A stretch of DNA of 64,000 nt from Candidatus Levyibacteriota bacterium (lineage in GTDB: Bacteria; Patescibacteriota; Microgenomatia; Levybacterales; UBA12049). Positions 15,041-62,321 of this stretch are shown here, piece by piece; the stretch's first letter is position 1; the number at the start of each line of letters is the position of its first letter. The DNA lies in NCBI GenBank assembly GCA_016182235.1, contig JACOXT010000005.1, positions 677 to 64,676 on the forward strand, in the 5' to 3' direction. The notes under the pieces were generated by a model. That model did no database searches. It was given only the letters and a program-made list of their open reading frames with translations, and was not told the DNA's origin. Position numbers and translations under genes: made by a program.

Positions 15041-15067
15041 TTCTTGATTCATGATTCACAATTCATC
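15033..15067. repeat. 7-nt period array (attcNNN x5) across the tyrS stop / purH 5' region
   Basis: attc at 15033, 15040, 15047, 15054, 15061. Confidence 0.7.
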
Positions 15068-19541: not shown

Positions 19542-20201
19542 ATGGAGCTCCCAAAACTAAAAAACACAAAACTTTTTGAAGAAGCGTTCACGCATAAGTC
19601 CTATCTTAACGAGGTAAAACAGAAAATACCCTCAAATGAAAGACTCGAGTTTTTGGGAGATAGCATCTTATCATTTGTAGTATCAAGTTTCTTATTCGAA
19701 AAGTACCCAAACTTCAATGAAGGGACACTCACCAACATTAGGTCTCTTTTGGTTAACACGAAGAGCTTATCTATGTTGGCTCGCGAACTAAATATCGGAA
19801 AACTTCTTAAACTCTCCCGCGGAGAAGAAGAGTCAAAAGGAAGAGAGAACGATGCGATTCTTGAAAATAGTTTCGAGGCTTTTGTTGGAGCATTTTTTCT
19901 AGATCAAGGAATCGAAGCCGTAAGGGATTTTTTAGAAAGAGTACTCCTTAATAAAATAAAAAATTTAATAAAAAGTAAATCTTTTAAGGACCCCAAAAGC
20001 ATATTGCAGGAGGTTGTACAGGCAAAAAAACAAAATTCTCCTATTTATAAGGTACTAGAAGAATCAGGACCTGCTCATTCAAAGACATTTAGAGTAGGTG
20101 TTTATGTTAATGAAATTATGGTCGGGGCGGGAATAGGGAAGTCAAAGCAAATCGCAGAATCGTCTGCTGCTAAAATCGCACTTGAGAGAGGAAGTTTTTA
20201 G
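19542..20201 (+). CDS. rnc: ribonuclease III
   Basis: signature ERLEFLGDSIL, ENSFEAFVGAFFLD, C-terminal dsRBD (DPKSILQE..GPAHSKTF). Confidence 0.93.
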   Translation: MELPKLKNTKLFEEAFTHKSYLNEVKQKIPSNERLEFLGDSILSFVVSSFLFEKYPNFNEGTLTNIRSLLVNTKSLSMLARELNIGKLLKLSRGEEESKGRENDAILENSFEAFVGAFFLDQGIEAVRDFLERVLLNKIKNLIKSKSFKDPKSILQEVVQAKKQNSPIYKVLEESGPAHSKTFRVGVYVNEIMVGAGIGKSKQIAESSAAKIALERGSF

Positions 20202-23697: not shown

Positions 23698-24582
23698 TTA
23701 ATTCGAGGGTACAAATAAACCATATGAAATATATGGCAGGAAAGCTTGTGAAAATCCTTTAAAAACAGAAATCCTACGACTCGCTTCTCCGCTTTCTCCG
23801 GTTGAAGTGATCTGGTAACCTTGAGATGGGAAGGTCGCTCCTCCAACTTCCGCTCCAATAAAAGTACTTTTATAAACAGGAATTGCTCGAACAAATATTC
23901 CTTCTGTAATATTTAAGTTTGTTGTTTCAAATTGAAGAGTCTTTCCTCCAATAGGCGTAGGTGATGTCGATGCCGGACTAAACCCATTTCCCCTATGGGT
24001 ATTACATGGATCAAATACACTTCGTGTTGAAGATACATTGAGAGAAGAAGTTCCACGTATCACTATTACTTCTATAGCAGCTGGCCAATTTGATGGATTT
24101 GAATCATCTGCGCATATCTCACCCGCTACGCCCCAATGCAATGTTAAATCCAAAGTTGCCCCGGGTACAGAAAATTCGATTTCGTCATTAGTGGGATCTT
24201 GATTCGCCAGCCAAATGTCTACTCCCTCGCTTTGCGGAATCAGACTTCCTCCATTTACCAGGAGTAGATTTGCACCTGTGCCAACCTCAACCACATTGGT
24301 ATCGTATCCAGTTAAAGGGGAGAGGCTTCCGCTGCTCAATCCTACTTGAGTATCTTGCAAGGCCCTTTCTATCCCTGCCTCGGCTGCGGCTAGCGCTTTT
24401 TGAGATTCTGCCTCCTCGGTTGAAGTCCTTATGTTTGTGATGCTTCGTCCGGCAATAGACAAACCAATAGTTAATGAAACAATAATTACCAATATAACAA
24501 TCAAAAGAACCTGCCCACTCTCCCAACTTTGAACTTTGCATTTTGAACTTTGAACTGCTTGAAGCATATATTTAGAATACAA
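23698..24582 (-). CDS. PilX-like / minor-pilin-like protein
   Basis: N-terminal SGQVLLIVILVIIVSLTIGLSIAG hydrophobic segment as in PilX_N; located between the pilin genes and pilM; N-terminus encoded by a heptad array. Confidence 0.5.
   Translation of the reverse strand: MYSKYMLQAVQSSKCKVQSWESGQVLLIVILVIIVSLTIGLSIAGRSITNIRTSTEEAESQKALAAAEAGIERALQDTQVGLSSGSLSPLTGYDTNVVEVGTGANLLLVNGGSLIPQSEGVDIWLANQDPTNDEIEFSVPGATLDLTLHWGVAGEICADDSNPSNWPAAIEVIVIRGTSSLNVSSTRSVFDPCNTHRGNGFSPASTSPTPIGGKTLQFETTNLNITEGIFVRAIPVYKSTFIGAEVGGATFPSQGYQITSTGESGEASRRISVFKGFSQAFLPYISYGLFVPSN
24525..24557. repeat. 7-nt period array (aactttg-like x5) at the 5' end of the PilX-like ORF
   Basis: aac at 24525, 24532, 24546, 24553 (variant unit at 24539). 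Confidence 0.6.
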
Positions 24583-24609
24583 GTCTTTCTATGCTTTGTC
24601 AACAGTATT

Positions 24610-25236
24610 TTATCTTTGATAATTTCTCATTGTCACTGAAGTTTCAAAAAGGATCGGCGGATTGGAACTTTCAACAAGATTACTTGATCCTTTTGGTTTA
24701 AGCTCAAACTTTATTCCAATTACGGGCACATCGGATGTCCCTGACACAGTGCAAGTGAAAGAACAACTCGGCACCTCTATGGTAGATGTATCAATAAAAG
24801 ATCCGCTGTCTGAAGCAATAGTAATGGGAGTTCCAGCACAAGAATATATGATTGGAGTGCTATTAAATGGCTTTATTCTAATATATTTATAAGGTGTTGT
24901 TGCTCCTGCCGGACACTGCATGATAGCTGGAGTTGCGAAATTATCGTCACTAAATCCATTAAATGACTCTGCAAACCCTATTGTTCTCCCGATTTGGGAA
25001 ATCGCGTAATTGCCATTCTGTCTTATGTTCTCAATAGTATTTGTTTTATTTGTTCCGCGAAGAGAAAATGTGATAACACCTACTACGATTGACCCAATTG
25101 CGACTAGAACAGTTATTACTACAACAAGTTCGATTAGCGTAAAACCTTCGGTTTTAAGATTAATGATTGATGAATAATGATTAATGATCTCACCAGAATA
25201 TTTCTTTCTATTCATAAATCTTAAATCTTTAATCAT
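24610..25236 (-). CDS. type IV pilin-like protein (minor pilin)
   Basis: KTEGFTLIELVVVITVLVAIG prepilin cleavage/methylation motif plus hydrophobic helix; start uncertain (Met codons at 25236 and 25215, both inside a repeat array). Confidence 0.8.
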   Translation of the reverse strand: MIKDLRFMNRKKYSGEIINHYSSIINLKTEGFTLIELVVVITVLVAIGSIVVGVITFSLRGTNKTNTIENIRQNGNYAISQIGRTIGFAESFNGFSDDNFATPAIMQCPAGATTPYKYIRIKPFNSTPIIYSCAGTPITIASDSGSFIDTSTIEVPSCSFTCTVSGTSDVPVIGIKFELKPKGSSNLVESSNPPILFETSVTMRNYQR

Positions 25237-25244
25237 AAATCACT
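25210..25244. repeat. 7-nt period array (aatcNNN x5) covering the start region of the 24610 pilin gene
   Basis: attcata/aatctta/aatcttt/aatcata/aatcact. Confidence 0.65.
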
Positions 25245-25246
25245 TA

Positions 25247-25726
25247 TCAAGGTGTTGGTTTAACTTCAATATTATAAAAACAAGAAATAATTTCCACTTT
25301 ATGGCAATACGGATTGCCCGCGGGACATTTACCATCCGACCAGAATACAGTTGATGCAACCTTACTGCCGATTGGATTACCACCACTGTCAGGACATTCA
25401 GAACTAACATGATCAATATCTATTGCTCTTATAAAAATTCCAACTATACCATCCATTATACAGTTTGACGAAGCAGTTAAAATCTTCGACTGGGGAAGGC
25501 AATTATTTGAGGCAAGTCCAGAAAAAGTAGCCCAGCTTGAACTCTTGATCTGTCTTATGACTTCTAAGCCTTCCTGCGCATACTGATTTGCTAAATTCTG
25601 ATTTTTTGTGAAGGTAGTGTTGCTTAAGGAGGAAATGACAACAGATGTAATCGCACTTAATATGAAAACGGCAGCGCTTAGTGCCAACAATGTCTCCAAA
25701 AGTGTCTGTCCCTTTTGATTTTTCAT
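25247..25726 (-). CDS. type IV pilin-like protein (minor pilin)
   Basis: MKNQKGQTLLETLLALSAAVFIL: short basic leader, Gly, Glu at +5, hydrophobic helix. Confidence 0.7.
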   Translation of the reverse strand: MKNQKGQTLLETLLALSAAVFILSAITSVVISSLSNTTFTKNQNLANQYAQEGLEVIRQIKSSSWATFSGLASNNCLPQSKILTASSNCIMDGIVGIFIRAIDIDHVSSECPDSGGNPIGSKVASTVFWSDGKCPAGNPYCHKVEIISCFYNIEVKPTP

Positions 25727-26304
25727 TGAATTTTTATTCTTCCTAATTTGTCAATCACAATAAGCTTACTATCCGATCCTGATATTAGCTTAACTTGCCA
25801 CGGATAACAGATAGGTGGAGAGCAAGAGCATCCGCTGTTTTCAACGACCCCACCCTCTAACACCGGAAATAAAAACGAGTGGTCTGTTCCAGAACAAGCT
25901 TCCTCAAAATCAACAGAATCTGGAAGACTTCCTGCAGAAATTATATGAGTTGTTGTGCAATACGCAATCAGTTGATAGTCTTTGTTGCTTAACATATCTA
26001 CTCCGTATCCCTCAAGAGCATTAGCGCCACATGTGTTTGGCTTTACCTGAGACAAAGCGCGCGATTTTGCCAGATTAAGCGTATTTGCAACGTCAATGGC
26101 CGCATTCTGAAGAACTTTGGTCTCGTTATAGCTATTAAACGAAGCTATACCAAATGCGGACAAAATACTCATAACAGAAAAAACAACAATTAATTCGATC
26201 AACGTAAAACCTTGGGATTTTATATTGCCATATTGTTTTACTGTCGTATTGTTTTTTTTAGCAATGTAGCAATGTAGCAATGTAGCAATTTCTGTAAGGA
26301 TCAT
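25723..26304 (-). CDS. type IV pilin-like protein (minor pilin)
   Basis: KSQGFTLIELIVVFSVMSILSAF; long apparent leader encoded partly by the gcaatgta repeat, true start uncertain. Confidence 0.75.
   Translation of the reverse strand: MILTEIATLLHCYIAKKNNTTVKQYGNIKSQGFTLIELIVVFSVMSILSAFGIASFNSYNETKVLQNAAIDVANTLNLAKSRALSQVKPNTCGANALEGYGVDMLSNKDYQLIAYCTTTHIISAGSLPDSVDFEEACSGTDHSFLFPVLEGGVVENSGCSCSPPICYPWQVKLISGSDSKLIVIDKLGRIKIQ
26261..26290. repeat. 8-nt tandem repeat gcaatgta x3 (+gcaatt)
   Basis: gcaat at 26261, 26269, 26277, 26285; lies in the 5' end of the 25723-26304 ORF. Confidence 0.75.
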
Positions 26305-26777
26305 GGGTTATTAACAGTGAAAGACCAATTTGTAGTTCCTCCCGTGCAGAGAGCATCATTTGAAGGATCTTTTTGAGAGTCATTAACATTTTCTAAACAT
26401 GAGACTATGCTGTATGTAGCGCCTCCTCCTCCCACTGCATAAGTATATACATAATCACCTGTATTTAATGGGTCGCATGGAATTTCCCGCATGTAGATTA
26501 CTGCTCCTGCGCTATCGGTGAAAGGGTTAGTGGGATCATCGCAAGTATTTGGAAAATCGCCTGGATCACCACCAACCACAACTGGATATAAGCCACTATC
26601 TGATCTGTAAAATTCCAGAGCCGAACGAATTTGACCAAGGTCAGATTTACGCACTCCGTCTCTGGTTCTTTGCCTTACTCCAACAAAATTAGCCGTAAGA
26701 AGCCCAGCCAAAAGCCCGATGATGATAATTGCCACCAAAAGCTCAATCAAAGTAAATCCTCTGGATTTACGAATCAT
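26301..26777 (-). CDS. GspG/PulG-like pseudopilin / type IV pilin-like protein
   Basis: MIRKSRGFTLIELLVAIIIIGLLAG from ATG 26777 gives a canonical short leader; track ORF extends to 26846 through heptad repeats. Confidence 0.8.
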   Translation of the reverse strand: MIRKSRGFTLIELLVAIIIIGLLAGLLTANFVGVRQRTRDGVRKSDLGQIRSALEFYRSDSGLYPVVVGGDPGDFPNTCDDPTNPFTDSAGAVIYMREIPCDPLNTGDYVYTYAVGGGGATYSIVSCLENVNDSQKDPSNDALCTGGTTNWSFTVNNP

Positions 26778-26798
26778 GAATAACGAATCATGAATTAT
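26771..26798. repeat. 7-nt period array (gaatcat/gaataac/gaatcat/gaattat)
   Basis: gaat at 26771, 26778, 26785, 26792. Confidence 0.65.
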
Positions 26799-26819
26799 GG
26801 TTATTAGGTTCTTTTTTTT

Positions 26820-26851
26820 ATTCATAATTCTTAATTCCTGATTCATAATTC
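26820..26851. repeat. 7-nt period array (attcNNN x4-5) between two pilin genes
   Basis: attc at 26820, 26827, 26834, 26841, 26848. Confidence 0.65.
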
Positions 26852-26855
26852 AATA

Positions 26856-27335
26856 CTATGGAGAGACATTCGGACTCGTAACTCCATAATTGCAATCTCC
26901 ACCACAATTTAAAGTCCCAGCATTTGGACATACGCCACCGCATGATTGGGGATCATCTGCTCTCTCCAAACTAGCATAAAGACGATATGACTGTTCACCA
27001 GATGAGGAATCATATACATATGTATTTGTGGGGGATGAAGGATCTTCGGGTAGTTTGCTCATATAAGGTGTCCAAGGATCTCCCCAGTCAACCTCAGAAC
27101 CTGACAAATCAGTAATTTTGGAGTTTGTGGCTGACGGGTATCGGCCGATATCATTATAAAAAACTTCAAGCGCCCTTTGTATTTGCTCAAGATCGGATTT
27201 TCTTCTTGCGTCATTGGCTTTTTGGATTTGCGTAAGAGGATTCAATACTATCATAACAGCGGATACAAGCGCTCCAACAATACCTATAACTATCAATAAT
27301 TCTATTAAGGTAAACCCACGTTCAAGCAAATGCAA
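26856..27335 (-). CDS. type IV pilin-like protein
   Basis: LERGFTLIELLIVIGIVGALV; track ORF (to 27503) overlaps pilD by 145 nt; in-frame TTG 27335 would give MHLLERG-FTLIE and removes the overlap. Confidence 0.75.
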   Translation of the reverse strand: MHLLERGFTLIELLIVIGIVGALVSAVMIVLNPLTQIQKANDARRKSDLEQIQRALEVFYNDIGRYPSATNSKITDLSGSEVDWGDPWTPYMSKLPEDPSSPTNTYVYDSSSGEQSYRLYASLERADDPQSCGGVCPNAGTLNCGGDCNYGVTSPNVSP

Positions 27336-27358
27336 TATCTCTGGCCACTTTTGAGTCT

Positions 27359-28149
27359 TTATATAGGAAATAGGAATCCCAGCATTATCTGCATGATTTG
27401 CTCTCCTAAAAATATAGTTAATAATGTCCCAAAAACTAAAAAGGGACCAAAAGGAATTTTTGTTCCGTGAAGTCTTTTTCTCTTCCATATAATTAGTATG
27501 CACCCGACAATGGCTCCTGTCAAGAACGATATGTACAAGGCAACAGCTATCTTTGGGAATCCCAAAACCAGCCCTAGAAGAAATGACAACTTCACATCGC
27601 CAAACCCCATCCCGCGACCTTTGGTTATCAGAAATAAGAACAAGAAGAAAAGAAAAGCCCCACCCCCGGAAAGCAAATGATTTAAGATTAAAGAATAATG
27701 ATTAAAGAATAGATATGGAAAAGAAACGAAGATCGAGGGAGCTACGATCGCGTCGGGAATTATCCCGTATTTCAAATCAGTAAAAAAAACCACAATTAAT
27801 GACGAGATAATAATAAAATAGTAAACCAAAGTAATATAATCCAAAATTCTTAATTCCTGATTCATGATTCTTGCTCCGAGAAAAACAAATACTAACACGA
27901 ACAAGATTCCCGTTGTTAACTCAACTACCGGATAATACAGAGATAGGGGAGTATGGCAATAGCGGCATTTGCCTCTTAGGATCAAGAACGAAAATAAAGG
28001 AATAAGATCATACCATGCTAAATCTTTCTTGCATTTATCGCAGTGAGATCTTCCTCCAAATACTCCTTCGCCTCTTGGCAATCTGTCAACCAACACATTC
28101 AAAAAACTCCCAATTGCAGTTCCAACTAAAAAGATAAAAATAATCTCCA
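27359..28149 (-). CDS. pilD: prepilin peptidase / N-methyltransferase PilD
   Basis: GSFLNVLVDRLP, Cys-rich CDKCKKDL..CRYC, FTDLKYGIIPD, GMGFGDVKL (two catalytic Asp boxes); track ORF reaches 28243 and overlaps the RAYT gene and a REP; GTG 28149 is a plausible start. Confidence 0.85.
27679..27712. repeat. 7-nt period array read in frame inside pilD
   Basis: gatt/gaat at 27679, 27686, 27693, 27700, 27707; encodes ..NHYSLILNHLL.. Confidence 0.55.
27846..27873. repeat. 7-nt period array (attcNNN x4) read in frame inside pilD
   Basis: attc at 27846, 27853, 27860, 27867; encodes ..RIMNQELRIL.., nearly the same DNA as 26820-26851. Confidence 0.6.
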
Positions 28150-28187
28150 CATACTTAGAATACCATATTTCCTTACGAGTGATTTGA

Positions 28188-28200
28188 CAAGGTCCGACCT
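28188..28200. repeat. REP palindrome aaggtcCgacctt (copy 1, immediately upstream of the RAYT start)
   Basis: perfect 6+1+6 palindrome. Confidence 0.8.
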
Positions 28201-28871
28201 TGCTCTGTAATATATATCCTATGCCTGCCATAAATTCTGTCAAAATTTACGTTGAAAATGGCTATTATCACATTTACAATCGGGGAATTGATAAACGAGA
28301 AATTTTTATAGACCACAAGGATTATATGGTTTTGCTTAGTCTTTTGAAGCGATATCTTGTGCCTTGGGAAAATAGCAAGGTCCGACCTCGTTATAGGATA
28401 GATCTTCATGAAAAAATTCAGCTAATCTCATATTGTCTCATGCCCAACCATTTTCATCTTATGATGAAACAATTCACGAAAGACGCGATTACAGAATTTA
28501 TGCGAGCTTTAACCAATAGCTACGTACTATACTTTAACTCACGGTATGAACGAATTGGACCTCTTTTTCAAGGAAGATATAAGGCCGTTCTTATCGAAAA
28601 GGAGTCATACTTTCTTCATCTTACTCGCTATATTCACACAAATCCGCTGGATCTTGGCTTTACAAGGTCGGACCTTGCAAAGTATAGGTATTCGAGTTAC
28701 GGGGAATTTATTGGAGAAAGAAAGACAGAATGGATTCACTTTGGGGAAATATTAGATTATTTTAAAAGCAAACAAAAAATGAGCGAGCAAGATATACTTT
28801 CGTATCAAAGTTTCGTAGAAGACTCGATAGGGGATTCAAAAGAAATTCTTGAAACACTAAGTATTGATTGA
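28200..28871 (+). CDS. REP-associated tyrosine transposase (RAYT; IS200/IS605 TnpA-like Y1 HUH transposase)
   Basis: YHIYNRG, LMPNHFHLMM (HUH), LFQGRYK, LTRYIHTNPL (catalytic Tyr region), YRYSSYGEF; single gene, no tnpB partner; flanked by REPs. Confidence 0.85.
   Translation: MLCNIYPMPAINSVKIYVENGYYHIYNRGIDKREIFIDHKDYMVLLSLLKRYLVPWENSKVRPRYRIDLHEKIQLISYCLMPNHFHLMMKQFTKDAITEFMRALTNSYVLYFNSRYERIGPLFQGRYKAVLIEKESYFLHLTRYIHTNPLDLGFTRSDLAKYRYSSYGEFIGERKTEWIHFGEILDYFKSKQKMSEQDILSYQSFVEDSIGDSKEILETLSID
28377..28389. repeat. REP copy 2 (aaggtccgacctc, one mismatch) inside the RAYT ORF
   Basis: encodes ..SKVRPRY.. Confidence 0.7.
28663..28677. repeat. REP copy 3 (caaggtcGgaccttg) inside the RAYT ORF
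   Basis: perfect 15-nt palindrome; encodes ..TRSDLAK.. Confidence 0.8.
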
Positions 28872-28876
28872 TTGTC

Positions 28877-28949
28877 CTGCAAGGTCGGACCTTGTATATG
28901 AGAGAATACAGCTTTCCTCTTGAAAACCCTAATTAGGCCCCTAATAAAT
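28877..28949. repeat. 73-bp REP-containing module, copy A
   Basis: ctgcaaggtcggaccttgtatatgagagaatacagctttcctcttgaaaaccctaattaggcccctaataaat; includes REP copy 4 (28880-28894), hairpins tgtat..ataca and attag-gccc-ctaat. Confidence 0.8.
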
Positions 28950-29017: not shown

Positions 29018-29089
29018 CTGCAAGGTCGGACCTTGTATATGAGAGAATACAGCTTTCCTCTTGGAAGCCTAATTAGGCCCCTAATAAAT
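29018..29089. repeat. 72-bp REP-containing module, copy B
   Basis: same as 28877-28949 except cttggaagcc versus cttgaaaaccc; includes REP copy 5 (29021-29035). Confidence 0.8.
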
Positions 29090-35071: not shown

Positions 35072-35180
35072 TATACTAAAAAAAGTCCAAGAATATCAAC
35101 ATGCTATAGGATAAAATGTTCATGATTTTTATAGAATATTGCACCTATACCTGCTAAAATATATATGTTGATAACCTATT

Positions 35181-36465: not shown

Positions 36466-37143
36466 ATATTACCTGGCTGGGCCTACTCAATAGAGAAATG
36501 GGAACCTTTTGTCCGCTTATTAAAACAAAAAGGGGTTGAAGTAAATCTTCTCAAAATTCCCGGCTTAACTGAAAAACTCGATAAAGTTTGGAATGTTAAT
36601 GATTATGTTGAATGGTTGAGAAAAAAAACTAACAATAAAATAATTCTCATCGGTCATTCAAATGGCGGGCGAATCGCTCTTAATTTTGTAGCAAAATATC
36701 CAAATCTGGTTCCGAACTTAGTTTTAATAGACAGCGCTGGGATTTATCATGATGATCTAGCTATTCGGCTGAAGCGGCTGATTTTTAAAAGCATTGCAAA
36801 AACTGCCAAAAAAATAACCAACACTCAAAAGCTTAAAGATTTCTTATATAAAATAGTAGGGGAGAACGATTACAGAAATGCAACTCAAAATATGAAACAA
36901 ACTATGCTTAATCTTATTAATTCCGATAAACTCCTAAGCTTTGGTAATATCACAACGCCAACTTTAATTATCTGGGGGAAAAACGATAAAATTACTCGTC
37001 TCTCTGACGCAAAACTCATAAATAAGCTAATTAAAAATTCAACGCTTCATATCATAGATGGCGCAAGACACTCGCCCCAGTTTACAAATCCGGTTGAGGT
37101 AGTCAACACTATAGTCAAAGAAATTAACAATAAAACAATCTAA
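36448..37143 (+). CDS. alpha/beta-fold hydrolase
   Basis: nucleophile elbow GHSNGG, C-terminal DG..H (IIDGARHSP) catalytic pattern. Confidence 0.75.
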   Translation: MKFEVYILPGWAYSIEKWEPFVRLLKQKGVEVNLLKIPGLTEKLDKVWNVNDYVEWLRKKTNNKIILIGHSNGGRIALNFVAKYPNLVPNLVLIDSAGIYHDDLAIRLKRLIFKSIAKTAKKITNTQKLKDFLYKIVGENDYRNATQNMKQTMLNLINSDKLLSFGNITTPTLIIWGKNDKITRLSDAKLINKLIKNSTLHIIDGARHSPQFTNPVEVVNTIVKEINNKTI

Positions 37144-37157
37144 CAATATAACAATTA
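37126..37157. repeat. 8-nt period array (acaatNNN x4)
   Basis: acaat at 37126, 37134, 37142, 37150; spans the stop of the hydrolase gene; related to the array at 3211-3242. Confidence 0.6.
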
Positions 37158-39338: not shown

Positions 39339-39378
39339 ATTTAATAAATAACTCATCTATACCGCTTTCCAGTACTAG

Positions 39379-41361
<1,983 letters not shown>

Positions 41362-41370: not shown

Positions 41371-42138
41371 ATGGACAACATAAGCGAAGCAAAAGAAAAC
41401 CAAAAACTGCCGGAGAGAAGAGTTATTCGTCTTAATGAAGACTTTCACCCTTTTGATCACGACGTAAACCTCATAGTAAAGAGAACGTTTTCCCAAAGAG
41501 AATCTCCTGACTTTGACGCTCTAGAGACTCGTATCGAGTTAGCTACGGAAAATGATCTAAGAATTCCAATAGATATGCTGTTATTCTCCGTTTCTTTTTG
41601 GCAACATGGTCATACTGTCCTTCCATTCGATAGTGAAAAAGGGTATCGGATTGATTCTGATGACTTTAATCTAGAAAACAGAATAGCAAAATTGAACCGA
41701 CTCGGTGAAGAAAAGCTAAGTAAATTCATGGATTTCTCAAAAAGACATTACGAATTATTTGTGGCGGGTAATGTGCCTTCTCTTATTGAAAACGCTATTG
41801 TTAAAAAAGTAAGCGGAGATCGTTATAGATTTCCACAGGAGAAGCTTAGCCTTTTAGGAAAATTAAGACTACTCTTACGACTTCCAGATGAATCCTTTGA
41901 GGCAAAACCTTTTGAGCCTTCGTTAACTCGCGGAGATCTATGGTTCAAAGATTTTTATCCAACCGACTCAGGTCCTCTTTCTGCTTCAACTGATGGTCTC
42001 CAATCACCGATCTTGCAATTGATAATGCAACGTGAAGGGTTTAATATACTCCTACCCGATGATCCGGAAAAACTCAAACAAATTAAAATGCGCTTTGTCC
42101 TTGCTGAAGAAAAACCAGATAGGGGAGGTGAGAATTAA
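41371..42138 (+). CDS. hypothetical protein (255 aa)
   Basis: ORF between gyrB and ppa; no motif recognised. Confidence 0.5.
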
Positions 42139-42659
42139 TGGACATTAAGAAATTAAACGCCGGGAAAAATGCGCCGGAAGAAATAAATGTTTTTATAGAA
42201 ATCCCCCAAGGAGTAAGTGTAAAGTATGAATTAGATAAAGATAGCGGCGTAATCTTTGTGGATAGATTTCTTTTTACAGAAATGGAATATCCATTTAATT
42301 ATGGTTTTGTGCCGGGAACTTTGGCCATGGATGGAGATCCTGTAGATGTTTTAGTGTTATCAAGCAAACCTGTAATACCAGGCGTTGTAATTCTTTCAAA
42401 ACCAATCGGAATGCTTGAGATGGAGGACGAGAAGGGAATTGATAACAAGGTAATTGCAGTTCCTGTTCCAAAAGTCGACCAAAAATTCAAAAATTATAAT
42501 GATATCAATGATATCCCAATCAAAACAAAAGAGGAAATCAAATACTTTTTCGAAAATTACAAAAAAACCGAACCGGGAAAATGGGTCAAGGTAAAAGAGT
42601 GGAAAGGAAGGGAAGCGGCGATTGAAGAAATAAGAAAAGCCATTGGAAACAAAAGTTAA
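42138..42659 (+). CDS. ppa: inorganic pyrophosphatase (family I)
   Basis: [35 protein letters not shown]. Confidence 0.92.
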
Positions 42660-42772
42660 AAGTCAAAGGTTAAAATTCAAAATTACAAGTAAAAATTCAA
42701 AAGTAAAGAATCTGAAAATTTTAACTTTTAAGTTGTATTTTTGACTTTTGATTTTTGAGTTTTGAGTTTATT
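42652..42772. repeat. about 120-bp array of 17 heptads, A-rich half then T-rich half (imperfect long inverted repeat)
   Basis: aaagtta/aaagtca/aaggtta/aaattca/aaattac/aagtaaa/aattcaa/aagtaaa/gaatctg/aaaattt/taacttt/taagttg/tattttt/gactttt/gattttt/gagtttt/gagttta; between ppa and gyrA. Confidence 0.7.
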
Positions 42773-42775
42773 ATT

Positions 42776-45274
42776 ATGCAAATTGGTAAATTACAACAAA
42801 CTGGAATTAGCGCAGAGGTCAAGAGGGCATACCTTGACTATGCAATGTCTGTTATTGTTTCCCGCGCGCTTCCTGATGTTAGAGATGGACTTAAACCAGT
42901 CCATAGACGTATTCTTTTCGCGATGCACGAGTTAAATCTAACGCACAACGCGAAATATGCAAAATCAGCAAAGATTGTTGGGGAGGTAATGGGAAAATAC
43001 CATCCTCATGGAGATTTACCAATATACGATGCATTAGTTCGCTTGGCTCAGGATTTCTCGATGCGTTATCCTTTGGTTGATGGCCAAGGAAATTATGGCT
43101 CAACTGATGGAGATCCGCCGGCTGCTATGCGTTATACAGAAGCGCGTCTGGCCGCAATCACCGCCGAGATGCTTTTGGATTTGGATAAAGAAACAGTTAG
43201 CCATCTGCCGAATTTTGACGCGACGCTTCAGGAACCGGCATATCTTCCTGCCAGACTCCCCAATCTTCTTTTGATGGGGTCTGAGGGTATCGCGGTTGGT
43301 ATGGCTACAAAAATTCCTCCTCACAATCTTGGTGAATTGGTAGACGCGATTATTTTTACGATTGGCAAAACAAAAGTATCAAAATCGTTGAATGGTGAAT
43401 CAAAATCTTTAACGCTGACGAGTAACGTCACTGTTGGTGAGCTCTTGGAATATATTAAAGGCCCGGATTTCCCAACGGCCGGGGCAATTTATGACATTTC
43501 TGAAATTACAAATGTGTATACAACCGGACGGGGAAGAATAATTATCCGAGGACGCGCAGAGATCGAAGATATAGGGCAGGGTAAATCGGCAATTATTATT
43601 ACCGAACTCCCTTATCAAGTCAACAAAGCTCTTATGGTTGCTCGTATTGCTGATTTAGCCCGTGAAAAGAAGATAGAAGGAATCTCGGATCTAAGGGATG
43701 AATCTGACAGACACGGAATAAGAGTGGTTGTGGAACTCAAGCGTGACACCGCGCCAAAAAGAGTATTGAATAACCTATTTAAACACACGAGTCTTCAATC
43801 AATTTTTCCCGCTAATATTGTTGCTTTGGTTGACGGTACACCTCAAACGTTAAATCTTAAAACTATTCTTGAGGAATATCTTAAACATAGATATATTGTT
43901 GTCACCAAACGTTCCGAATTTGAGTTAAAGCAGGCCAAGGCAAGGCTTCATATTCTTGAGGGACTAAAAACTGCAGTCGATCAAATAGATGCTGTTATAA
44001 GAACAATTCGTGAATCCAAAGACCAAGATTCCGCAAAGAAGAATTTGATCATTAAATTTAAACTTACCGAGATCCAAGCGGTTGCGATTTTGGATATGCA
44101 GCTTCGCCGACTCGCGGCTTTGGAACGGCAAAAAATAGAAGACGAGCTTATCATGATAAAAGAAGCAATTGCTTATTTGGAAGACCTGCTTTCTCATTCA
44201 GAAAAAATACTAAGCGTAATCAAAGAAGAATTGAAAGTTCTAAAAGAAAGGTATCAGGACCAGAGGCGCACAAAGGTATATAAAAGTAAAGTCGGAGAGT
44301 TTTCCGATGAAGATCTTATTCCAAATGAATCAACGGTTATAACTATTACCGATACCGGATATATAAAGCGCCAAAGCCTCAGTAGTTTCAGAGTCCAGCA
44401 TAGGGGAGGAAAAGGAGTTAAGGGAATGACTACCAAAGAGGAGGATGGAATTTTGAATATTCGCTATGCGCAAACCCATGATAATATTTTGTTTTTTACA
44501 AACAAAGGAAAAGTCTACCAGCTCAGGGCCTTTGAAATTGCGGAGTCCCAAAGAACAAGTAAGGGCACCGCCATTGTGAATCTTATCAATATAGAACAAA
44601 ATGAGAGAGTCGAATCCTTTATAAATTACAGCGTGGGAAAAGGAAGCGAAGAGTTCCCATATAAATATGTGTTTCTTACCACCAAAAATGGGACTGTTAA
44701 AAAGACCGCGTTATCAGAATTTGAAAATATAAGGAGAAATGGGATTATCGCAATTAAACTAGACAAAGGAGATGAGCTTGTGTGGAGTAAGTTAACCAAC
44801 GGCGATAATGAAGTTATTCTCACGACTCACGACGGAAAGGCAATAAGATTTTCTGAGAAGTCTGTAAGACCTTTGGGCAGAAGTACCACAGGAGTTCACG
44901 GGATAAAGCTAAAAGAGGGCGACCAAGTAACGGGAATGGACATTATCAAAAAATCAGATAAAGCAGACCTCCTTACAATAATGGAGAATGGGCTGGGTAA
45001 AAAAACTTCTGTCGACCAGTTCAGAGGACAAACTAGGGCCGGACAAGGCGTAAAAGTCGCAAAGGTAACATCGAAAACAGGAAAGGTCGCATTCGCTCAG
45101 GTAATTCCGCCAAATTGCAAAAGCTTAATTATTACATCCAAAAAAGGACAAGTCGTAAAGCTTGAAATTTCTTCAGTACCAAAACGTTCTCGAAACACAC
45201 AGGGAGTGTTTTTAATGAGATTCTCAAACAAAACACCCGACCATATAACTTCTGCAACTTGCATTGAAGAATGA
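42776..45274 (+). CDS. gyrA: DNA gyrase subunit A
   Basis: [44 protein letters not shown] (catalytic Tyr), C-terminal beta-pinwheel repeats; track start TTG 42755 lies in the heptad array, ATG 42776 preferred. Confidence 0.95.
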
Positions 45275-46131
45275 AAATCAATGGATCGGAAATCGCAAAT
45301 AAGATTCACATCGAACTTCGAAAAAAGGTAAAAAAGCTAAAAGAGAAAAAAATCACGCCCCATCTTGCGGTAATTCTCATCGGCAGTGATCCCGCATCAA
45401 CTGCGTATGTTCGGCAAAAAGAATTAAAATCAAAAGCAATTAGTGTTAATACAACAATAGCAAAATTTCCTTCCGGTGTCTCCCAAAAAAATATTTTGAA
45501 AACAATTCAGCAATATAACAATGATAACAATATTCACGGAATTATTGTTCAGCGTCCTCTGCCTTCGCATATTGATTCGAATGTAATCTCAAAATCCATA
45601 GATCCCAAAAAGGATGTGGATGGCTTTCACCCAAAATCCAAATTTCAACCACCTCTCGCTCTGGCGGTATTGAAGATTTTGAAAAATATATTCGTCCACC
45701 TTCGAGGTGGGGTTGCGCCTGCGGCACACCTCGAAGGTGAATTTCGTGAATGGTTAATCCTCCAAAATATTGTCGTTATTGGCAAGGGTGAAACCGGTGG
45801 TAAACCTGTAATTGAAATGCTTAAAAAAATAGGAGCAAAGCCTTTGATTGTCGACAGTAAAACTCAAAATCCCCCTAACATAACTAAAACTGCAGATATA
45901 ATAATCTCTGCGGTTGGCAAAGAAAATACAATAAAGCCAGAAATGATCAAAAAAAATTCTATTTTAATTAGCATTGGTTTGTCAAAAGGAAAAGACGGAA
46001 AACTTCACGGGGATTATGATGAAGACAAGATCAAAAACATTGCATCCTTTTACACCCCAACCCCAGGAGGAGTAGGCCCCATCAATGTAGCTATGCTTTT
46101 GAAAAATTTAGTAAAAGCGTCCGAAAGTTAA
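45271..46131 (+). CDS. folD: bifunctional methylenetetrahydrofolate dehydrogenase / methenyl-THF cyclohydrolase
   Basis: [40 protein letters not shown]; carries an in-frame 44-bp GC-rich element. Confidence 0.9.
45696..45739. repeat. 44-bp GC-rich hairpin element, in frame in folD
   Basis: ccaccttcgaggtggggttgcgcctgcggcacacctcgaaggtg; 13-bp arms caccttcgaggtg / cacctcgaaggtg; exact reverse complement of 48008-48051. Confidence 0.9.
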
Positions 46132-46383: not shown

Positions 46384-46445
46384 TTGACAGGAAACATATC
46401 CTTCTGTTAAAGTTAGTTCCCAGAACAAAAGTGTTCTGGTTTTTT
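46384..46445 (+). promoter_or_regulatory. candidate pyr promoter plus leader hairpin with U-tract ending at the pyrB ATG
   Basis: ttgaca 46384-46389, 18-nt spacer, taaagt 46408-46413; ccagaac-aaaagt-gttctgg 46420-46439 followed by six T (46440-46445), then ATG 46446. Confidence 0.45.
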
Positions 46446-47405
46446 ATGGATAACCCACAAAAAATTAATGGTGACTTCAAAGGAAAAGATATTGTTTCTC
46501 TTGATCAATTCTCCAAAAAAGATATCTATATTCTCTTCTCTAATACATCCAAAATGAAGAATCTCGTCCAAAAAAAAGGAGGTTCAACTCTACTTAAGGG
46601 TAAAATTATGTGCGCCATATTTTATGAACCATCTTCAAGAACTTTTGGGTCTTTTATTACTTCTATGCAACGTTTGGGAGGAGGATTTATCCCTTTACAA
46701 GGAATGGGAAATTCTTCTGTTGCTAAAGGAGAAACTTTAGAAGACACTATGCAAACATTTTCCTCATATAGTGATGTCATTGTCATTCGTCATCCAGAAA
46801 GAGGAACGGCAAAAATCGCAGCAAATGCTACAGAAATTCCCGTTATTAATGCCGGTGACGGAATAGGCGAGCACCCAACGCAAGCACTTTTAGATCTTTA
46901 TACCATTCAAGAAGAATTTGGAAAACTTGATAACTTAACTGGCGTTTTCGCGGGTGACATGCTTCATGGACGAACAGTAAAATCACTTCTTCGCGGTCTT
47001 TCGCTTTTCAAGAATAACACCTGCTATTTATTGTCCCCAAAAGAATTAAAGCTTTCAAGGGAAGATTTTAACGATTTCCAAAGAAGAGGGATAAAAATTA
47101 TTGAAATTAAAAATTATAGCGATATCCCCAAAAATGCTCATTTTTGGTACTGGACAAGAATTCAAAAAGAACGATTTGAAAATTTCAAAGATTATGAAAA
47201 AGTAAAGAATATTTTTATATTAACAAAACGTCTATTAGACACTTATGGAAATTCCAAAATGATTCTTATGCACCCTTTGCCAAGAGTAAATGAAATAGAA
47301 AAAGAAATCGACAGTGATACGCGAGCGGTTTACCTAAAGCGTCAGATGAAAAACGGAATGTATTTAAGAATGGCGCTTTTGGCATTAGTCTTGGGAAAAA
47401 TATGA
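46446..47405 (+). CDS. pyrB: aspartate carbamoyltransferase catalytic subunit
   Basis: FYEPSSRTFGSF, HPTQALLDLYTI, LMHPLPRVNEI; track ORF begins at 46323 but the homologous region starts at MDNPQK (ATG 46446). Confidence 0.9.
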   Translation: MDNPQKINGDFKGKDIVSLDQFSKKDIYILFSNTSKMKNLVQKKGGSTLLKGKIMCAIFYEPSSRTFGSFITSMQRLGGGFIPLQGMGNSSVAKGETLEDTMQTFSSYSDVIVIRHPERGTAKIAANATEIPVINAGDGIGEHPTQALLDLYTIQEEFGKLDNLTGVFAGDMLHGRTVKSLLRGLSLFKNNTCYLLSPKELKLSREDFNDFQRRGIKIIEIKNYSDIPKNAHFWYWTRIQKERFENFKDYEKVKNIFILTKRLLDTYGNSKMILMHPLPRVNEIEKEIDSDTRAVYLKRQMKNGMYLRMALLALVLGKI

Positions 47406-48517
47406 TTGGAAAACTTATTCTGGAGGATGCTTCGGAATTTGAAGGCATAAGCTTAGGAGCTCCTCGCTCAATTTCTGGCGAGGTAGTTTTCTCAACAGGA
47501 ATGGTAGGATATCCAGAAAGTTTAACTGATCCTTCATACAAAGGACAAATTTTAATATTTACTTATCCTTTGATTGGAAATTACGGAATTCCCGACAAGA
47601 AGTATTGGGAGTCGGATAAAATCCAAGTCTCAGGATTTATCGTCTCAAATTATATTGATACTCCTTATCATCAAGAAATGACTTTGACTCTAAGAAAATG
47701 GGCAGTTAAAGAGAACGTACCTTTTCTTGAAATTACAGATACAAGATTATTAACTCAAAAAATAAGGACAAAAGGAACAATGCTCGGGAAAATAATCACT
47801 AAGGACAATATTAATTTTTATGATCCAAATAAAGAAAACCTTGTCGCCCAAGTTTCAACAAAAAAAGTTATTCAAAAAGGCAACGGTAAAAAAACGGTTA
47901 TTTTAATAGATTGTGGAGCAAAACAAAACATAGAAAGATCTTTGTTGAAAAGGGGAGTAAGAGTCATAACTGTTCCGTGGAATTTCGATCCATTCGACCC
48001 GAAGGTACACCTTCGAGGTGTGCCGCAGGCGCAACCCCACCTCGAAGGTGGCAGGCTGAAGCAAAGCGAAAGCCATGACTCCTTCGAGGTGAAATTCGAT
48101 GGGATTGTCGTCTCCAATGGTCCGGGTGACCCGAAAATGGCAACAAAAACAATCGAAACCATCCGAAAAGCTCTTGCCTCCAAAATCCCAGTTCTTGGAA
48201 TTTGCCTTGGACATCAATTACTTGCATTGGCGGGAGGAGGGGATACCCAAAAATTAAAATTTGGCCACAGAAGCCAAAATCAGCCTTGCGTATTGGAAAA
48301 AACAAAAAGGTGCTATATCACAACTCAAAACCATGGTTTTGAAGTTTCTAAAATTCCCAAGGGATTTCATAAATGGTTTACGAACGCAAATGATAATTCA
48401 AATGAGGGCATAATCCACCAAAAACTCCCATTTATGTCAGTGCAATTTCATCCTGAAGCCGCCCCCGGCCCCGAAGATACAGGATGGATATTCGACTATT
48501 TCCTGGAAAAAATATGA
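47402..48517 (+). CDS. carA: carbamoyl-phosphate synthase small (glutaminase) subunit
   Basis: GEVVFSTGMVGYPESLTDPSY, GICLGHQLLALA (catalytic Cys), FGHRSQNQP, QFHPEA; carries an in-frame GC-rich insertion. Confidence 0.92.
   Translation: MIGKLILEDASEFEGISLGAPRSISGEVVFSTGMVGYPESLTDPSYKGQILIFTYPLIGNYGIPDKKYWESDKIQVSGFIVSNYIDTPYHQEMTLTLRKWAVKENVPFLEITDTRLLTQKIRTKGTMLGKIITKDNINFYDPNKENLVAQVSTKKVIQKGNGKKTVILIDCGAKQNIERSLLKRGVRVITVPWNFDPFDPKVHLRGVPQAQPHLEGGRLKQSESHDSFEVKFDGIVVSNGPGDPKMATKTIETIRKALASKIPVLGICLGHQLLALAGGGDTQKLKFGHRSQNQPCVLEKTKRCYITTQNHGFEVSKIPKGFHKWFTNANDNSNEGIIHQKLPFMSVQFHPEAAPGPEDTGWIFDYFLEKI
48008..48051. repeat. 44-bp GC-rich hairpin element, in frame in carA (inverted relative to the folD copy)
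   Basis: caccttcgaggtgtgccgcaggcgcaaccccacctcgaaggtgg, 44/44 identical to the reverse complement of 45696-45739; extra arm copies at 47999-48007 and 48083-48093. Confidence 0.9.
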
Positions 48518-51733: not shown

Positions 51734-52816
51734 ATGTCTTTAATAACTTTGCTTGGTCTTATTGACCCCCATGTTCACCTAAGGGATCCAAGACAAACCC
51801 ATAAGGAAGATTTTTATACAGGCACTTGTGCTGCATTGGCCGGAGGCTTTACAACAATCCTTGATATGCCAAACAATAAAACTCCCATAACAACTTTCAG
51901 GGTCTTGAATGAGAAAATCAAAATTGCCAAAGAAAAAATAGTTTGCGATGTGGGATTTTATTTTGGCTCTCTCGGAGATAATCTAGATGAATTTGAGAAA
52001 GTTAAAAATAAAGTTTTAGGTCTTAAGTTATATCTCAACGAAACCACTGGAAATCTTTTAATAGATAAAATGGAATTAGAAAAAATATTTCTTGCCTGGT
52101 CTCAAAGTATGTCACTACATAGTAACATACTTTCGACCAAACCAATTCTTATACACGCGGAAGAAAAAATGCTAAATGTTGTTATTGATTTAGTTAAGAA
52201 ATTGGGAAACAAAATTCATGTCTGCCATATAAGCACTGTTTCTGATTTAACACAAATTATTAAAGCAAAAGAGGAAGGCTTACCAATTACTTGCGGCGTC
52301 ACTCCTCACCATTTATTTTTAACTGAAAACGATGTCAAAACTCTTGGTCCATTTGGCAAAATGAAACCAGGATTAAAAAGTAAAAAAGATCAGGATTTTT
52401 TGTGGAAAAATTTAAAATATATTGATGTAATAGAATCTGATCATGCTCCGCATACGGTCAATGAAAAGAGGGGAGAGGGGACAACCTACGGCGTTCCCGG
52501 GCTTGAGACTACGCTTCCGCTTTTATTAACTGCAGTTTCTGAGAAACGAATAGAGATTGATGATATTATGCGACTCTGCCACAAAAACACAGCCAAAATC
52601 TTTGGCATCAAATCTGACCCGCAAACAAAAATCGAGATTAATCTTCATACTTCATACTTCATACTTCATACTTCATTATTTACGAAATGCGGCTGGTCAC
52701 CATTTGAAGGTTGGAAAGTGAAAGGAAAAATAGAAAGAGTTTTTATAAGAGGAGAAAAAGTTTTTGAAGACGGTAAGGTCTTAGTAAAACCAGGATTTGG
52801 AAAAATTCTTATCTAG
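51734..52816 (+). CDS. pyrC: dihydroorotase
   Basis: DPHVHLRDP, TILDMPN, ESDHAPH; contains an in-frame heptanucleotide array. Confidence 0.88.
   Translation: MSLITLLGLIDPHVHLRDPRQTHKEDFYTGTCAALAGGFTTILDMPNNKTPITTFRVLNEKIKIAKEKIVCDVGFYFGSLGDNLDEFEKVKNKVLGLKLYLNETTGNLLIDKMELEKIFLAWSQSMSLHSNILSTKPILIHAEEKMLNVVIDLVKKLGNKIHVCHISTVSDLTQIIKAKEEGLPITCGVTPHHLFLTENDVKTLGPFGKMKPGLKSKKDQDFLWKNLKYIDVIESDHAPHTVNEKRGEGTTYGVPGLETTLPLLLTAVSEKRIEIDDIMRLCHKNTAKIFGIKSDPQTKIEINLHTSYFILHTSLFTKCGWSPFEGWKVKGKIERVFIRGEKVFEDGKVLVKPGFGKILI
52643..52677. repeat. heptanucleotide tandem repeat cttcata x4 + cttcatt, in frame inside pyrC
   Basis: units start at 52643, 52650, 52657, 52664, 52671; translated ..LHTSYFILHTSLF.. 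Confidence 0.85.
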
Positions 52817-61574: not shown

Positions 61575-62321
61575 TCAATTAACCACAGAAGATAGGCGTG
61601 AAATGAAATCTTGAAGCTCTTGAGGCAAATTAGACTCGAATGAAATCATCTTACCATTTTTTGGATGGTAAAAGGAGATTTTGGATGCATGTAAAAATAT
61701 GCGGGATAAGAGCTTTCTGTCAACTTTTGATGTCTTTCTTCCTGCATAAAGAGGGTCAGCAAAAACCGGGTGGTTTATGTATTTTAAATGCACCCTAATC
61801 TGATGCGTCCTCCCAGTCTTAGGATAAAGTTCAAGCAAACTTAAAGGCTCTCTATTTTTTCCCGATACATAATACATAATACTTAATACTTTATACTTCG
61901 TCACGGCTTCTCTTCCCCCGGCAACTACCCCAAATCTTCTCCTATTCCATGGCAACCTCCCTACCGAAACATTAATCTCACCCTCATTTTTTTCTATTTT
62001 TCCATGAACTAATGCAAGATATGTTTTTTTGACTTTTCTCTCTTTAAATTGAGATTGCAGATTATCAAAGCTATCAGGAGTTTTGGCGACAATCAGAATT
62101 CCCGAGGTCTCCTTATCAAGCCTATGAACAATCCCTGCCCGTTTATAAAAATCCGATTCCTCATCAATTGAAAATTGAAAATTGAAAATTGAAAATTTAT
62201 CTTCCACCCAATCCTGTACCGTCCTCTCCCCTTTTGTTGTATCAGATCTATTCACAACAACTCCTGACGGCTTGTCCAAAACCAAAATATCATGATCCTC
62301 GTACAAAATCTTTATCTCCAT
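61575..62321 (-). CDS. RluA-family pseudouridine synthase (RluD-like, no S4 domain)
   Basis: ILYEDHDILVLDKPSG, HRLDKETSGILIVAK (catalytic Asp), THQIRVHL; contains an in-frame heptanucleotide array. Confidence 0.88.
   Translation of the reverse strand: MEIKILYEDHDILVLDKPSGVVVNRSDTTKGERTVQDWVEDKFSIFNFQFSIDEESDFYKRAGIVHRLDKETSGILIVAKTPDSFDNLQSQFKERKVKKTYLALVHGKIEKNEGEINVSVGRLPWNRRRFGVVAGGREAVTKYKVLSIMYYVSGKNREPLSLLELYPKTGRTHQIRVHLKYINHPVFADPLYAGRKTSKVDRKLLSRIFLHASKISFYHPKNGKMISFESNLPQELQDFISRLSSVVN
62166..62198. repeat. heptanucleotide tandem repeat aaaattg x4, in frame inside the RluA-family gene
   Basis: ttg at 62168, 62175, 62182, 62189; translated (minus strand) ..FSIFNFQFSID.. Confidence 0.8.

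Follow-up and report, generated by a model that had tools for sequence, protein, structure and literature searches.

Locus and architecture of the heptad element

The window analyzed here is a 64-kb stretch of a metagenome-assembled genome of Candidatus Levybacteria (Microgenomates, candidate phyla radiation (CPR)), and all coordinates refer to this window. Between ppa and gyrA it carries a run of 7-nt units (42650–42769), arranged as an inverted repeat, which starts inside the final three ppa codons and fills the whole of the 116-nt spacer between the two genes. This heptad element is the subject of the present analysis, and the features at the locus are as follows.

39396–39404, + strand: extended −10-like sequence TGgTAAAAT, read in the spacer 39339–39411; likely promoter of the gyrB-hyp-ppa-gyrA-folD unit
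39412–41361, + strand: gyrB (Pfam DNA_gyraseB, Toprim and HATPase_c)
42138–42659, + strand: ppa, soluble inorganic pyrophosphatase (Pfam Pyrophosphatase, PF00719), with a TAA stop codon at 42657–42659
42650–42702, + strand: 5′ arm of the element, about 7–8 A-rich heptads (NTYAAAA / AAAAGTY) with one register slip, from Tandem Repeats Finder (TRF) and parsing; paired in the minimum free energy structure of the RNA
42703–42718, + strand: non-periodic apical region or loop, from the inverted-repeat search and the RNA fold
42719–42769, + strand: 3′ arm, about seven T-rich heptads (TTTTAAC ... TTTTGAC/T/G), from TRF and the RNA fold; last paired base at about 42764
42765–42775, + strand: unpaired U/A-rich linker AGTTTATTATT from the hairpin foot to the gyrA AUG, without a Shine-Dalgarno (SD) sequence, from the sequence and the RNA fold
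42776–45274, + strand: gyrA, from its ATG (Pfam DNA_topoisoIV and GyrA_C)

The five genes gyrB, hyp (an unassigned gene between gyrB and ppa), ppa, gyrA and folD, the last of which overlaps gyrA by 4 nt, are co-directional and, except for the ppa-gyrA gap, spaced by 0–10 nt. Because of this spacing and the −10-like site before gyrB, they would constitute a single transcription unit, with which the element would be co-transcribed. The start of gyrA is consistent with its homologues, which open M-x-I-G. The Ppa and GyrA proteins are 100% identical to NCBI entries for Candidatus Levybacteria. The ppa gene is preceded by a strong SD sequence, GGGGAGGTGAG, and SD usage in the window is low (8 of 46 genes, with a loose motif). 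The Ppa protein has a C-terminal extension of three residues (NKS), absent from the six homologues compared, and the three codons for these residues, together with the stop codon, fall within the first heptads.

The autocorrelation of 42652–42772 was 0.667 at lag 7 and 0.626 at lag 14. When each half was dinucleotide-shuffled separately (2000 shuffles), the lag-7 value had a mean of 0.392 and a standard deviation of 0.042, placing the element at z = 6.5, and none of the 2000 shuffles attained 0.667 at any lag from 2 to 14. TRF detected arrays at 42651–42704 (period 7, 7.9 copies, 68% matches, 4% indels) and at 42739–42769 (4.4 copies, 91% matches). The arms at 42652–42702 and 42719–42769, 51 nt each and separated by 16 nt, are 76% Watson-Crick complementary, and the word NTYAAAA is found in about seven copies on the top strand and then in about six on the bottom strand, at a 7-bp pitch. 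These results indicate that the 7-nt periodicity and the A-rich/T-rich inverted symmetry, both pointed out in a preliminary description of the sequence, are real and not an artefact. The parsing into heptads proposed there also held, but the 17 clean units did not: the register slips by one base after unit four or five, and about 16–20 central bases are non-periodic. The element thus consists of head-to-tail 7-nt units beyond chance, like the long simple-sequence repeats of heptanucleotides, and combines direct and inverted 7-bp units, like the heptad operator arrays of the omega type.

The sense RNA of 42645–42780 folds at −31 kcal/mol (z = −4.7, and −5.9 in a second shuffle set), in agreement with the long imperfect hairpin that had been suggested for the region. 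The predicted stem comprises about 45 bp of A-U and G-U pairs, including an uninterrupted 20-bp helix. In contrast, the antisense RNA folds at −15.9 kcal/mol (z = −1.3), and DNA parameters gave −16.7 kcal/mol (z = −1.8), with 9 of 200 shuffles equally stable; the difference is due to the G·U pairs. The ppa stop codon is located inside the stem foot, which ends 11 nt before the gyrA AUG and leaves AGUUUAUUAUU unpaired. In the predicted fold, the stem offers at least about 20 bp of nearly continuous double-stranded RNA (dsRNA), as RNase III substrates do, and the window contains an rnc gene (19542–20201, + strand; Pfam Ribonuclease_3 and dsrm), whose product is a candidate enzyme for long dsRNA stems.

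gyrA junctions in related loci

The sample comprised 160 ppa loci from genome and metagenome collections and the contigs of close Ppa and GyrA homologues, labelled L001 onward. The order ppa-then-gyrA is kept in about 46 distinct Levybacteria-like loci, whose spacers fall into four classes: spacers of 0–15 nt, with stop and start codons often overlapping (a, about 11 loci); hairpins of 7-nt or 8-nt units (b, about 22 loci, or about half); other strongly folding palindromes, some of them G+C-rich (c, about 10 loci); and a small zinc-ribbon open reading frame (ORF) between palindromes (d, about 4 loci). The class b hairpins fill the spacer, starting 0–12 nt past the upstream stop codon and ending 0–15 nt before the gyrA ATG in at least 17 spacers. 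Their repeat words are as follows.

AATTAG/CTAATT: L026, L058, L066, L162, L163, L166 and L175
CTAGNNG: L002, L008 and L173
AAATTTGG/CCAAATT: L004, L087 and L093
CAATG octads: L003, L020 and L082
purine-rich GATAGAG: L085
AAGACTT: L014
AAAAGTY: the window only

In L020, two copies of the octad hairpin (93% over 71 nt) are found, one on each side of ppa, and in L011 a G+C-rich palindrome is nested in the apex of the heptad hairpin. Two more distant relatives, L017 and L035, carry a compact hairpin with a T-run at the same place. No SD sequence precedes gyrA in any of the examined loci, and ppa has GGAGGTGA in about 85% of about 45 Levybacteria loci. In L066 (3930–4003) and L093 (2440–2500), which clearly have no ppa SD, an AATNGTN heptad array occupies the place of the SD, and in L011, L020 and L008 heptad or octad arrays or hairpins are located upstream of the ppa SD.

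For the pair L004 and L093, about 125 nt of hairpin align at 91–92% identity and with 5 gap positions (blastn E = 6e-34), whereas the ppa and gyrA DNA is 76–77% identical and the four-fold sites are saturated (0.41–0.45). The hairpin is the most conserved stretch of the ppa-gyrA interval in these two loci, the gene content of which differs, with no gene between gyrB and ppa in L093. For the pair L163 and L166, the hairpins are 92% identical with 1 gap, with the four-fold sites at 0.49. Unrelated hairpin pairs, aligned in the same way, exhibited 65–72% identity and 30–39 gaps. A neutral origin of the conserved sister hairpins was rejected by the four-fold-site comparison: at such divergence, repeat DNA evolving neutrally would not have persisted, and constraint therefore acts on the sister hairpins.

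The spacers were identical in independent samples for window/L001, L085/L086, L093/L094, L163/L164 and L166/L167/L168. Copy-number variation between samples, as in a contingency locus, was not seen in these five pairs or trios, and differences of one or two units were seen between species only (L175 versus L163). The identical spacers indicate that the arrays are not hypervariable.

The link to gyrA was assessed over 200 junctions from 36 loci, counting spacers of at least 40 nt with a lag-7 or lag-8 autocorrelation of at least 0.45; the ORF calls were crude and hid two pilin hairpins of the window. Periodic spacers were found at 13 of the 36 gyrA-upstream junctions, compared to 5 of 164 others (Fisher p = 1e-7, about 12-fold). 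The hairpin of L173, with a membrane H+-pyrophosphatase gene upstream, shares an identical 18-nt stretch with the hairpins of L002 and L008, with ppa upstream. In L175, a G+C-rich palindrome is inserted after ppa, and the heptad hairpin is still next to gyrA. The hairpins are enriched at this junction and retained when the upstream gene differs or an element is inserted, so that chance placement alone does not explain their association with gyrA. Among GyrA relatives, the closest (L169–L173, 86–87% identity) have the membrane H+-pyrophosphatase gene (PF03030) directly upstream of gyrA instead of ppa, and a pyrophosphatase-gyrA linkage is thus retained, with a non-homologous enzyme.

Heptad arrays and other features of the window

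Period-7 arrays number 22 in the window, whereas 30 block-wise dinucleotide shuffles of it yielded 2.6 on average. The arrays of the preliminary description were all confirmed, at 15031, 17851, 24525, 25212, 26771, 26820, 27679, 27846, 36442, 52643 and 62166 for the 7-nt period and at 3219, 26259 and 37125 for the 8-nt period, and four others were found at 16177, 17888, 25154 and 61865. The gyrA element is, as claimed, the largest of the family. Levybacteria-like loci (168 kb) hold 21 period-7 and 12 period-8 arrays, compared to 6 and 4 in other taxa (420 kb). The unit words vary among the arrays of the window. Arrays at the gyrA junction are nearly all inverted pairs, whereas those in coding sequence are single-orientation. 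This genome-wide family supports repeat expansion as the origin of the element, which had been one of the initial suggestions. Four members fill, or lie at, other junctions:

26755–26860, − strand: second heptad hairpin, filling the spacer between two pseudopilin genes and overlapping the downstream start (sense RNA −26.8 kcal/mol, z = −5.6)
25150–25255, − strand: third heptad hairpin, between two pseudopilin genes; the 3′ arm is translated within a long prepilin leader (from the array listing and the fold)
15031–15066, + strand: heptad array in a single orientation that takes up the spacer before purH, to 4 nt from the ATG (TRF)
37125–37155, + strand: single-orientation 8-nt array (TAACAATA) filling an intercistronic spacer and ending 6 nt before the ATG of the gene at 37162 (TRF)

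In each of five consecutive pseudopilin-like genes (23698–27503, − strand), the region encoding the prepilin leader peptide contains, or is closely preceded by, arrays with a 7- or 8-nt unit (24525, 25154/25212, 26259 and 26769/26820), and the leaders are unusually long, with up to about 32 residues before the G|FTLIEL cleavage site. The prepilin peptidase gene pilD (27359–28243) has two such arrays, at 27679 and 27846. Phase variation of the pilins is conceivable, because a one-unit change would shift the reading frame. Within coding sequence, heptad arrays are located in purH (16177–16207), recG (17851–17918), pyrC (52643–52676) and a rluD-like gene (61865–61898 and 62166–62197), and two of them are perfect repeats. 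For PyrC and PurH, the length of the segment is unchanged compared to solved homologues, the native sequence being overwritten without insertion; for RecG and RluD, the arrays are accompanied by small insertions. The lengths of 15 of 19 period-7/8 arrays are between 29 and 36 nt, with a median of 31 for either unit size, unlike the decaying distribution expected from simple slippage. Because of this clustering at about 31 nt for both periods and the unchanged length of the PyrC and PurH proteins, the arrays could come from fixed-length reiterative patch synthesis rather than from ordinary slippage.

Several other features of the window were recorded. A RAYT-like (REP-associated tyrosine transposase; REP, repetitive extragenic palindrome) gene of the IS200-family Y1 type is located at 28222–28871 (Pfam PF01797; NCBIfam REP_Tyr_transpos below cut-off). 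The palindrome AAGGTCSGACCTT both flanks and interrupts this gene (28189, 28377, 28664, 28881 and 29022, with one more at 38561), and a 73-nt direct repeat comes after it (28877–28949 and 29018–29089). Two perfect copies of a 44-nt G+C-rich palindrome, in opposite orientation and read in frame, are found in the unrelated genes folD (45696–45739) and carA (48008–48051) and resemble the Rickettsia-type palindromic elements that insert into coding sequence. The pyrB leader (46384–46446) has a promoter-like TTGACA-18-TAAAGT followed by a hairpin and T6 into the probable ATG (…CCAGAACAAAAGTGTTCTGGTTTTTTATGG), an arrangement that looks attenuator-like. In the 809-nt gap after rplT (3198–4006), 41 nt from the 5′ end of pheS (8011–8051) are duplicated at 97.6% (3784–3824), and a strong promoter-like site lies at 3823–3851. 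The hairpin that most resembles a terminator in the whole window (3970–3991) is also in this gap and closely precedes the gene that begins at 4007; no Rfam leader matched the gap. Finally, a divergent spacer of 109 nt (35072–35180), at a switch of gene orientation and of cumulative GC skew, holds an inverted pair of DnaA-box-like sequences, TTATCAACA … TGTTGATA; lying about 4 kb from gyrB, it is a possible candidate replication origin.

A candidate gyrA leader element and the competing explanations

The periodicity, the palindrome, the strand-specific RNA foldability, the position, the enrichment at gyrA and the conservation of sister elements were observed directly. The element is probably a functional part of the gyrA leader that would act at the RNA level, with an effect on gyrA. 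We favour, tentatively and at somewhat less than even probability, an RNA hairpin that acts in cis from the leader of gyrA within a polycistronic mRNA. The points in favour of RNA are the advantage of sense over antisense folding in three families (the window, AATTAG and octad hairpins), the U-rich tails, the lack of promoters inside the hairpins and the heptad arrays that replace the ppa SD in L066 and L093. The ratio of G·T to A·C mismatches (21:11) is also suggestive, although confounded by G>C skew.

Several results weigh against this reading. About a quarter of the relatives have no spacer at all, indicating that the element is dispensable. A homologue of the window's own spacer sequence was not found beyond one identical contig, so that constraint is demonstrated for the sister elements at the same junction and, for the element of the window, would follow from these. 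In the search for closer relatives, the nearest Ppa was 85% and the nearest GyrA 87% identical, and the spacers of these nearest relatives, instead of the window-type sequence, were of other families, 15 nt long, or behind another upstream gene. The hairpin of L011 (3900–3985) shares CAAAATTACA and TTTTAACTTTTAA with that of the window, but the blastn match was not significant, and such sharing is expected by chance, since few A+T-rich heptad words exist. The strand asymmetry of folding is not shared by the CTAG and L004-type hairpins, and L011 and L014 show the opposite bias; with the families thus inconsistent, it was rejected as a universal signature of selection on RNA. Permuting the unit order of the 3′ arm left the fold as strong, without unit-to-unit matching, which indicates that pairing occurs at the level of the repeat word and not of matched pairs. 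Covariation was not detected in tiny, repeat-confounded alignments (double changes in 3 of 51, 5 of 13 and 2 of 13 pairs), nor in the AATTAG family (0 of 21 pairs). In addition, the primary-sequence conservation of the sister hairpins includes the apex, which is a point for DNA rather than RNA.

Known element classes did not account for the site. A scan of the window gave no Rfam match at gathering thresholds, and at E ≤ 10 the only match in 42500–42900 was a chance one to CRISPR-DR (E = 9.3), with the gyrA motif RF01740 not matched; no tRNA was found. As a promoter of gyrA within the element, the sole match in the window, TTGATT-18-TATTAT, was rejected: it overlaps the ATG and would start transcription within gyrA. 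No consistent sigma-70-like promoter was found across 20 related gyrA leaders. Tandem interspaced guide RNA (TIGR) arrays consist of longer units of guides between repeats, and were rejected in view of the 7-nt tandem units here.

It is conceivable, if unlikely, that the hairpin does nothing and is a non-adaptive by-product of 7-nt slippage or reiterative synthesis and template-switch inverted duplication, at a junction that tolerates insertions. Like arrays occur in prepilin leaders, in variable protein segments (purH, recG, pilD, pyrC and rluD) and in other spacers, and the array words of the window are diverse. The first heptads overrun the end of ppa, many relatives are spacerless, other palindromes and small ORFs also accumulate at the junction, and the unit order is not optimised for pairing; the heptamer repeat excess in bacteria is, moreover, ascribed to polymerase slippage (Mrazek 2007, cited in PMC4679880 and PMC4692102). 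However, neutral DNA would be unalignable at the saturated synonymous divergence at which the sister hairpins remain 91–92% identical, and neither the 12-fold enrichment nor the inverted pairs, nearly the rule at the gyrA junction as opposed to single orientations in coding sequence, fits a by-product well. A DNA-level role, to which we assign a still lower probability, would take one of two forms: cooperative binding of a protein to the converging arrays of approximately 13 NTYAAAA copies, blocking or modulating read-through into gyrA, or extrusion of the A+T-rich inverted repeat as a cruciform when negative supercoiling is high, in homeostatic gyrase control. The same word in both orientations at a 7-bp pitch, primary sequence conserved without covariation, a unit order irrelevant to pairing, the near-perfect Watson-Crick palindromes of the CTAG family and L014 without sense-strand bias, and an enrichment specific to gyrA would all suit it, and heptad arrays have precedents as operators. 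The omega repressor of plasmid pSM19035 recognises arrays of 7-bp heptads, both direct and inverted. In the ctxAB promoter of Vibrio cholerae, regulators are recruited by TTTTGAT heptads (10.1101/2021.05.14.444153). The arms of the window, at 76% Watson-Crick complementarity and with a DNA fold of −16.7 kcal/mol (z = −1.8), are nevertheless unfavourable for cruciform extrusion, and about a quarter of the relatives are spacerless, so that the cruciform initially considered, and with it the idea of a supercoiling sensor, is not favoured. Periods of 7 and 8 nt both occur, and the words differ within the genome and between lineages at the junction, so that numerous cognate proteins would be needed; no candidate for such a binder emerged from an analysis that included no search aimed at ribbon-helix-helix proteins.

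Lower again in probability is intrinsic termination or attenuation, by which the gyrB-ppa transcript would end at the element and less transcription would continue into gyrA. A U-rich stretch does follow the long hairpin, a run of at least four T in −15..−1 is present in 12 of 21 hairpin-bearing gyrA leaders compared to 6 of 44 ordinary genes (p = 7e-4), L017 and L035 have their compact hairpin and T-run at the same place, and the pyrB leader in the window has a hairpin and T6 abutting the ATG. In the window, however, the tail UUUAUUAUU follows an A-U stem foot, and the terminator scan of 42400–43000 returned 0 sites, with no G+C-rich stem and T-run; an A-U foot with the tail TTTATTATT is not what an intrinsic terminator has. 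Canonical terminators are not enriched in the genome, as judged from 60 kb of the window, and the early suggestion of a terminator for ppa is not supported. T-runs occur in only about 5 of 11 independent families. A strong terminator would also shut off gyrA, which is essential and lacks its own promoter. Equally improbable is a mobile palindrome of the REP type, or of the type of miniature inverted-repeat transposable elements (MITE), inserted between ppa and gyrA. The octad hairpin copies on both sides of ppa in L020, the nested palindrome of L011, the tandem elements of L175, the variable occupancy of the orthologous site and a RAYT-like Y1 transposase encoded in the window are in keeping with it. 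The hairpin, however, is A+T-rich and single-copy in the 64 kb, whereas REPs are multi-copy G+C-rich palindromes; neither target-site duplication nor conserved termini were seen, and a link to the RAYT-like gene was rejected because the palindrome flanking that gene differs from the heptads.

Under the favoured reading, the leader hairpin would have originated by 7-nt repeat expansion and inverted duplication, a process that has left arrays of about 31 nt scattered through the genome, and the product at the ppa-gyrA junction would have been kept as a cis-acting element. Transcribed with the operon, it would fold into the A-U/G-U hairpin of about 45 bp, and its most likely action would be post-transcriptional control of gyrA. 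In one version, the stem would sequester or organise the U-rich initiation region, making gyrA translation dependent on ribosomes that finish ppa; the hairpin would join stop to start as a collapsed spacer, and the terminating ribosome would open its foot, which amounts to translational coupling. Coupling fits the strong ppa SD, the lack of a gyrA SD and the overlapping stop and start codons in spacerless relatives, and the overlapping or abutting codons of relatives without a hairpin look like a coupling arrangement themselves. In the other version, RNase III may cut the long stem, so that the ppa and gyrA segments of the mRNA would have separate fates. This would fit the length of the stem, the enzyme encoded at 19542–20201 and the precedent of hmw (PMC12721329).

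Comparison with known systems and implications

According to PMC4679880 and PMC4692102, which cite Mrazek 2007, heptanucleotide repeats are over-represented in bacteria, mostly in about 4–5 copies and mainly intergenic, for example GGGAATC in Xanthomonas and repeats in Nostoc/Calothrix. The present arrays are similar in their tandem 7-nt units, in stem-loop inverted pairs, which are occasional there, and in having the same gene neighbours in related species. They differ in having no dominant word, in being A+T-rich instead of G-rich and without G-quadruplex potential, in the inverted pairs being the rule at the gyrA junction, in conservation far above the synonymous level, and in occurring also in coding sequence and leader peptides. 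In Beggiatoaceae, Cyanobacteria and Bacteroidetes, TAACTGA direct repeats precede start codons, and a translational role was proposed for them (PMC4679880). Like those repeats, the present arrays end a few nucleotides before the starts of genes without a canonical ribosome-binding site (purH, gyrA and the gene at 37162), whereas here the words are many and hairpins with a complementary arm are common.

The 5′ untranslated region of hmw1A in Haemophilus influenzae contains a heptad-repeat hairpin processed by RNase III (PMC12721329). There, a (7-nt)n array in the transcript supplies one arm of a long leader hairpin through which the downstream gene is controlled, and the gyrA element would be alike in transcription and control. 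In hmw, only one arm is a repeat, with a hypervariable copy number (phase variation); here, both arms are repeats, no variation in copy number between samples was seen, and the gene is a housekeeping one inside an operon. The candidate cis-regulatory structure RF01740 upstream of gyrA in Pseudomonas (PMC2864571) is similar in position, but it belongs to an unrelated taxon and has no repeat architecture.

The 7-bp direct and inverted units are like those of the omega and ctxAB arrays, and the 3′ arm in the window reads TTTTGAC/TTTTGAT/TTTTGAG. Those arrays are promoter operators with one conserved word and a known binder; here, the words vary among the arrays of the window and the site has no promoter. 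Palindromes of the REP class, including bacterial interspersed mosaic elements (BIME), have been proposed to take part in gyrase binding. Other roles proposed for REP/BIME palindromes and their RAYT transposases are in mRNA stability and termination (PMC3733652, PMC3479197). They resemble the element as intercistronic palindromes in operons with variable occupancy of orthologous sites, but REPs are G+C-rich palindromes of 20–40 nt with a GTAG/CGTC tag that occur in numerous, almost identical copies, unlike the A+T-rich, 7-periodic, single-copy element of about 120 nt. No description of such heptad hairpins at gyrA junctions was found in the searchable literature, and their concentration on this junction, the hairpin architecture as a rule, lineage words conserved beyond synonymous sites and the occurrence in CPR bacteria appear to be new.

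For decades, heptamer repeats between genes have been described from several bacterial phyla, and hardly any has been given a function. Here, one architecture is found repeatedly at a single junction, before an essential and dosage-sensitive gene, in an uncultivated phylum, with lineage-specific words that are conserved well beyond synonymous sites wherever they could be compared, and the question of junk or signal is directly testable. The answer bears on the organisation of translation in the operons of SD-poor CPR bacteria, on the balance of gyrase subunit expression, and on the possibility that these small genomes are shaped by an unusual process of mutation. A broader proposal, which we regard as doubtful, is that in Levybacteria, and perhaps in other SD-poor CPR bacteria, 7-nt-repeat hairpins would form a modular class of leaders, quickly replaceable but maintained by selection and concentrated on gyrA, that may set gyrase A output via coupling, RNase III or a repeat-binding factor, for which a cold-shock-domain or S1-type protein with a footprint of about 7 nt would be a candidate.

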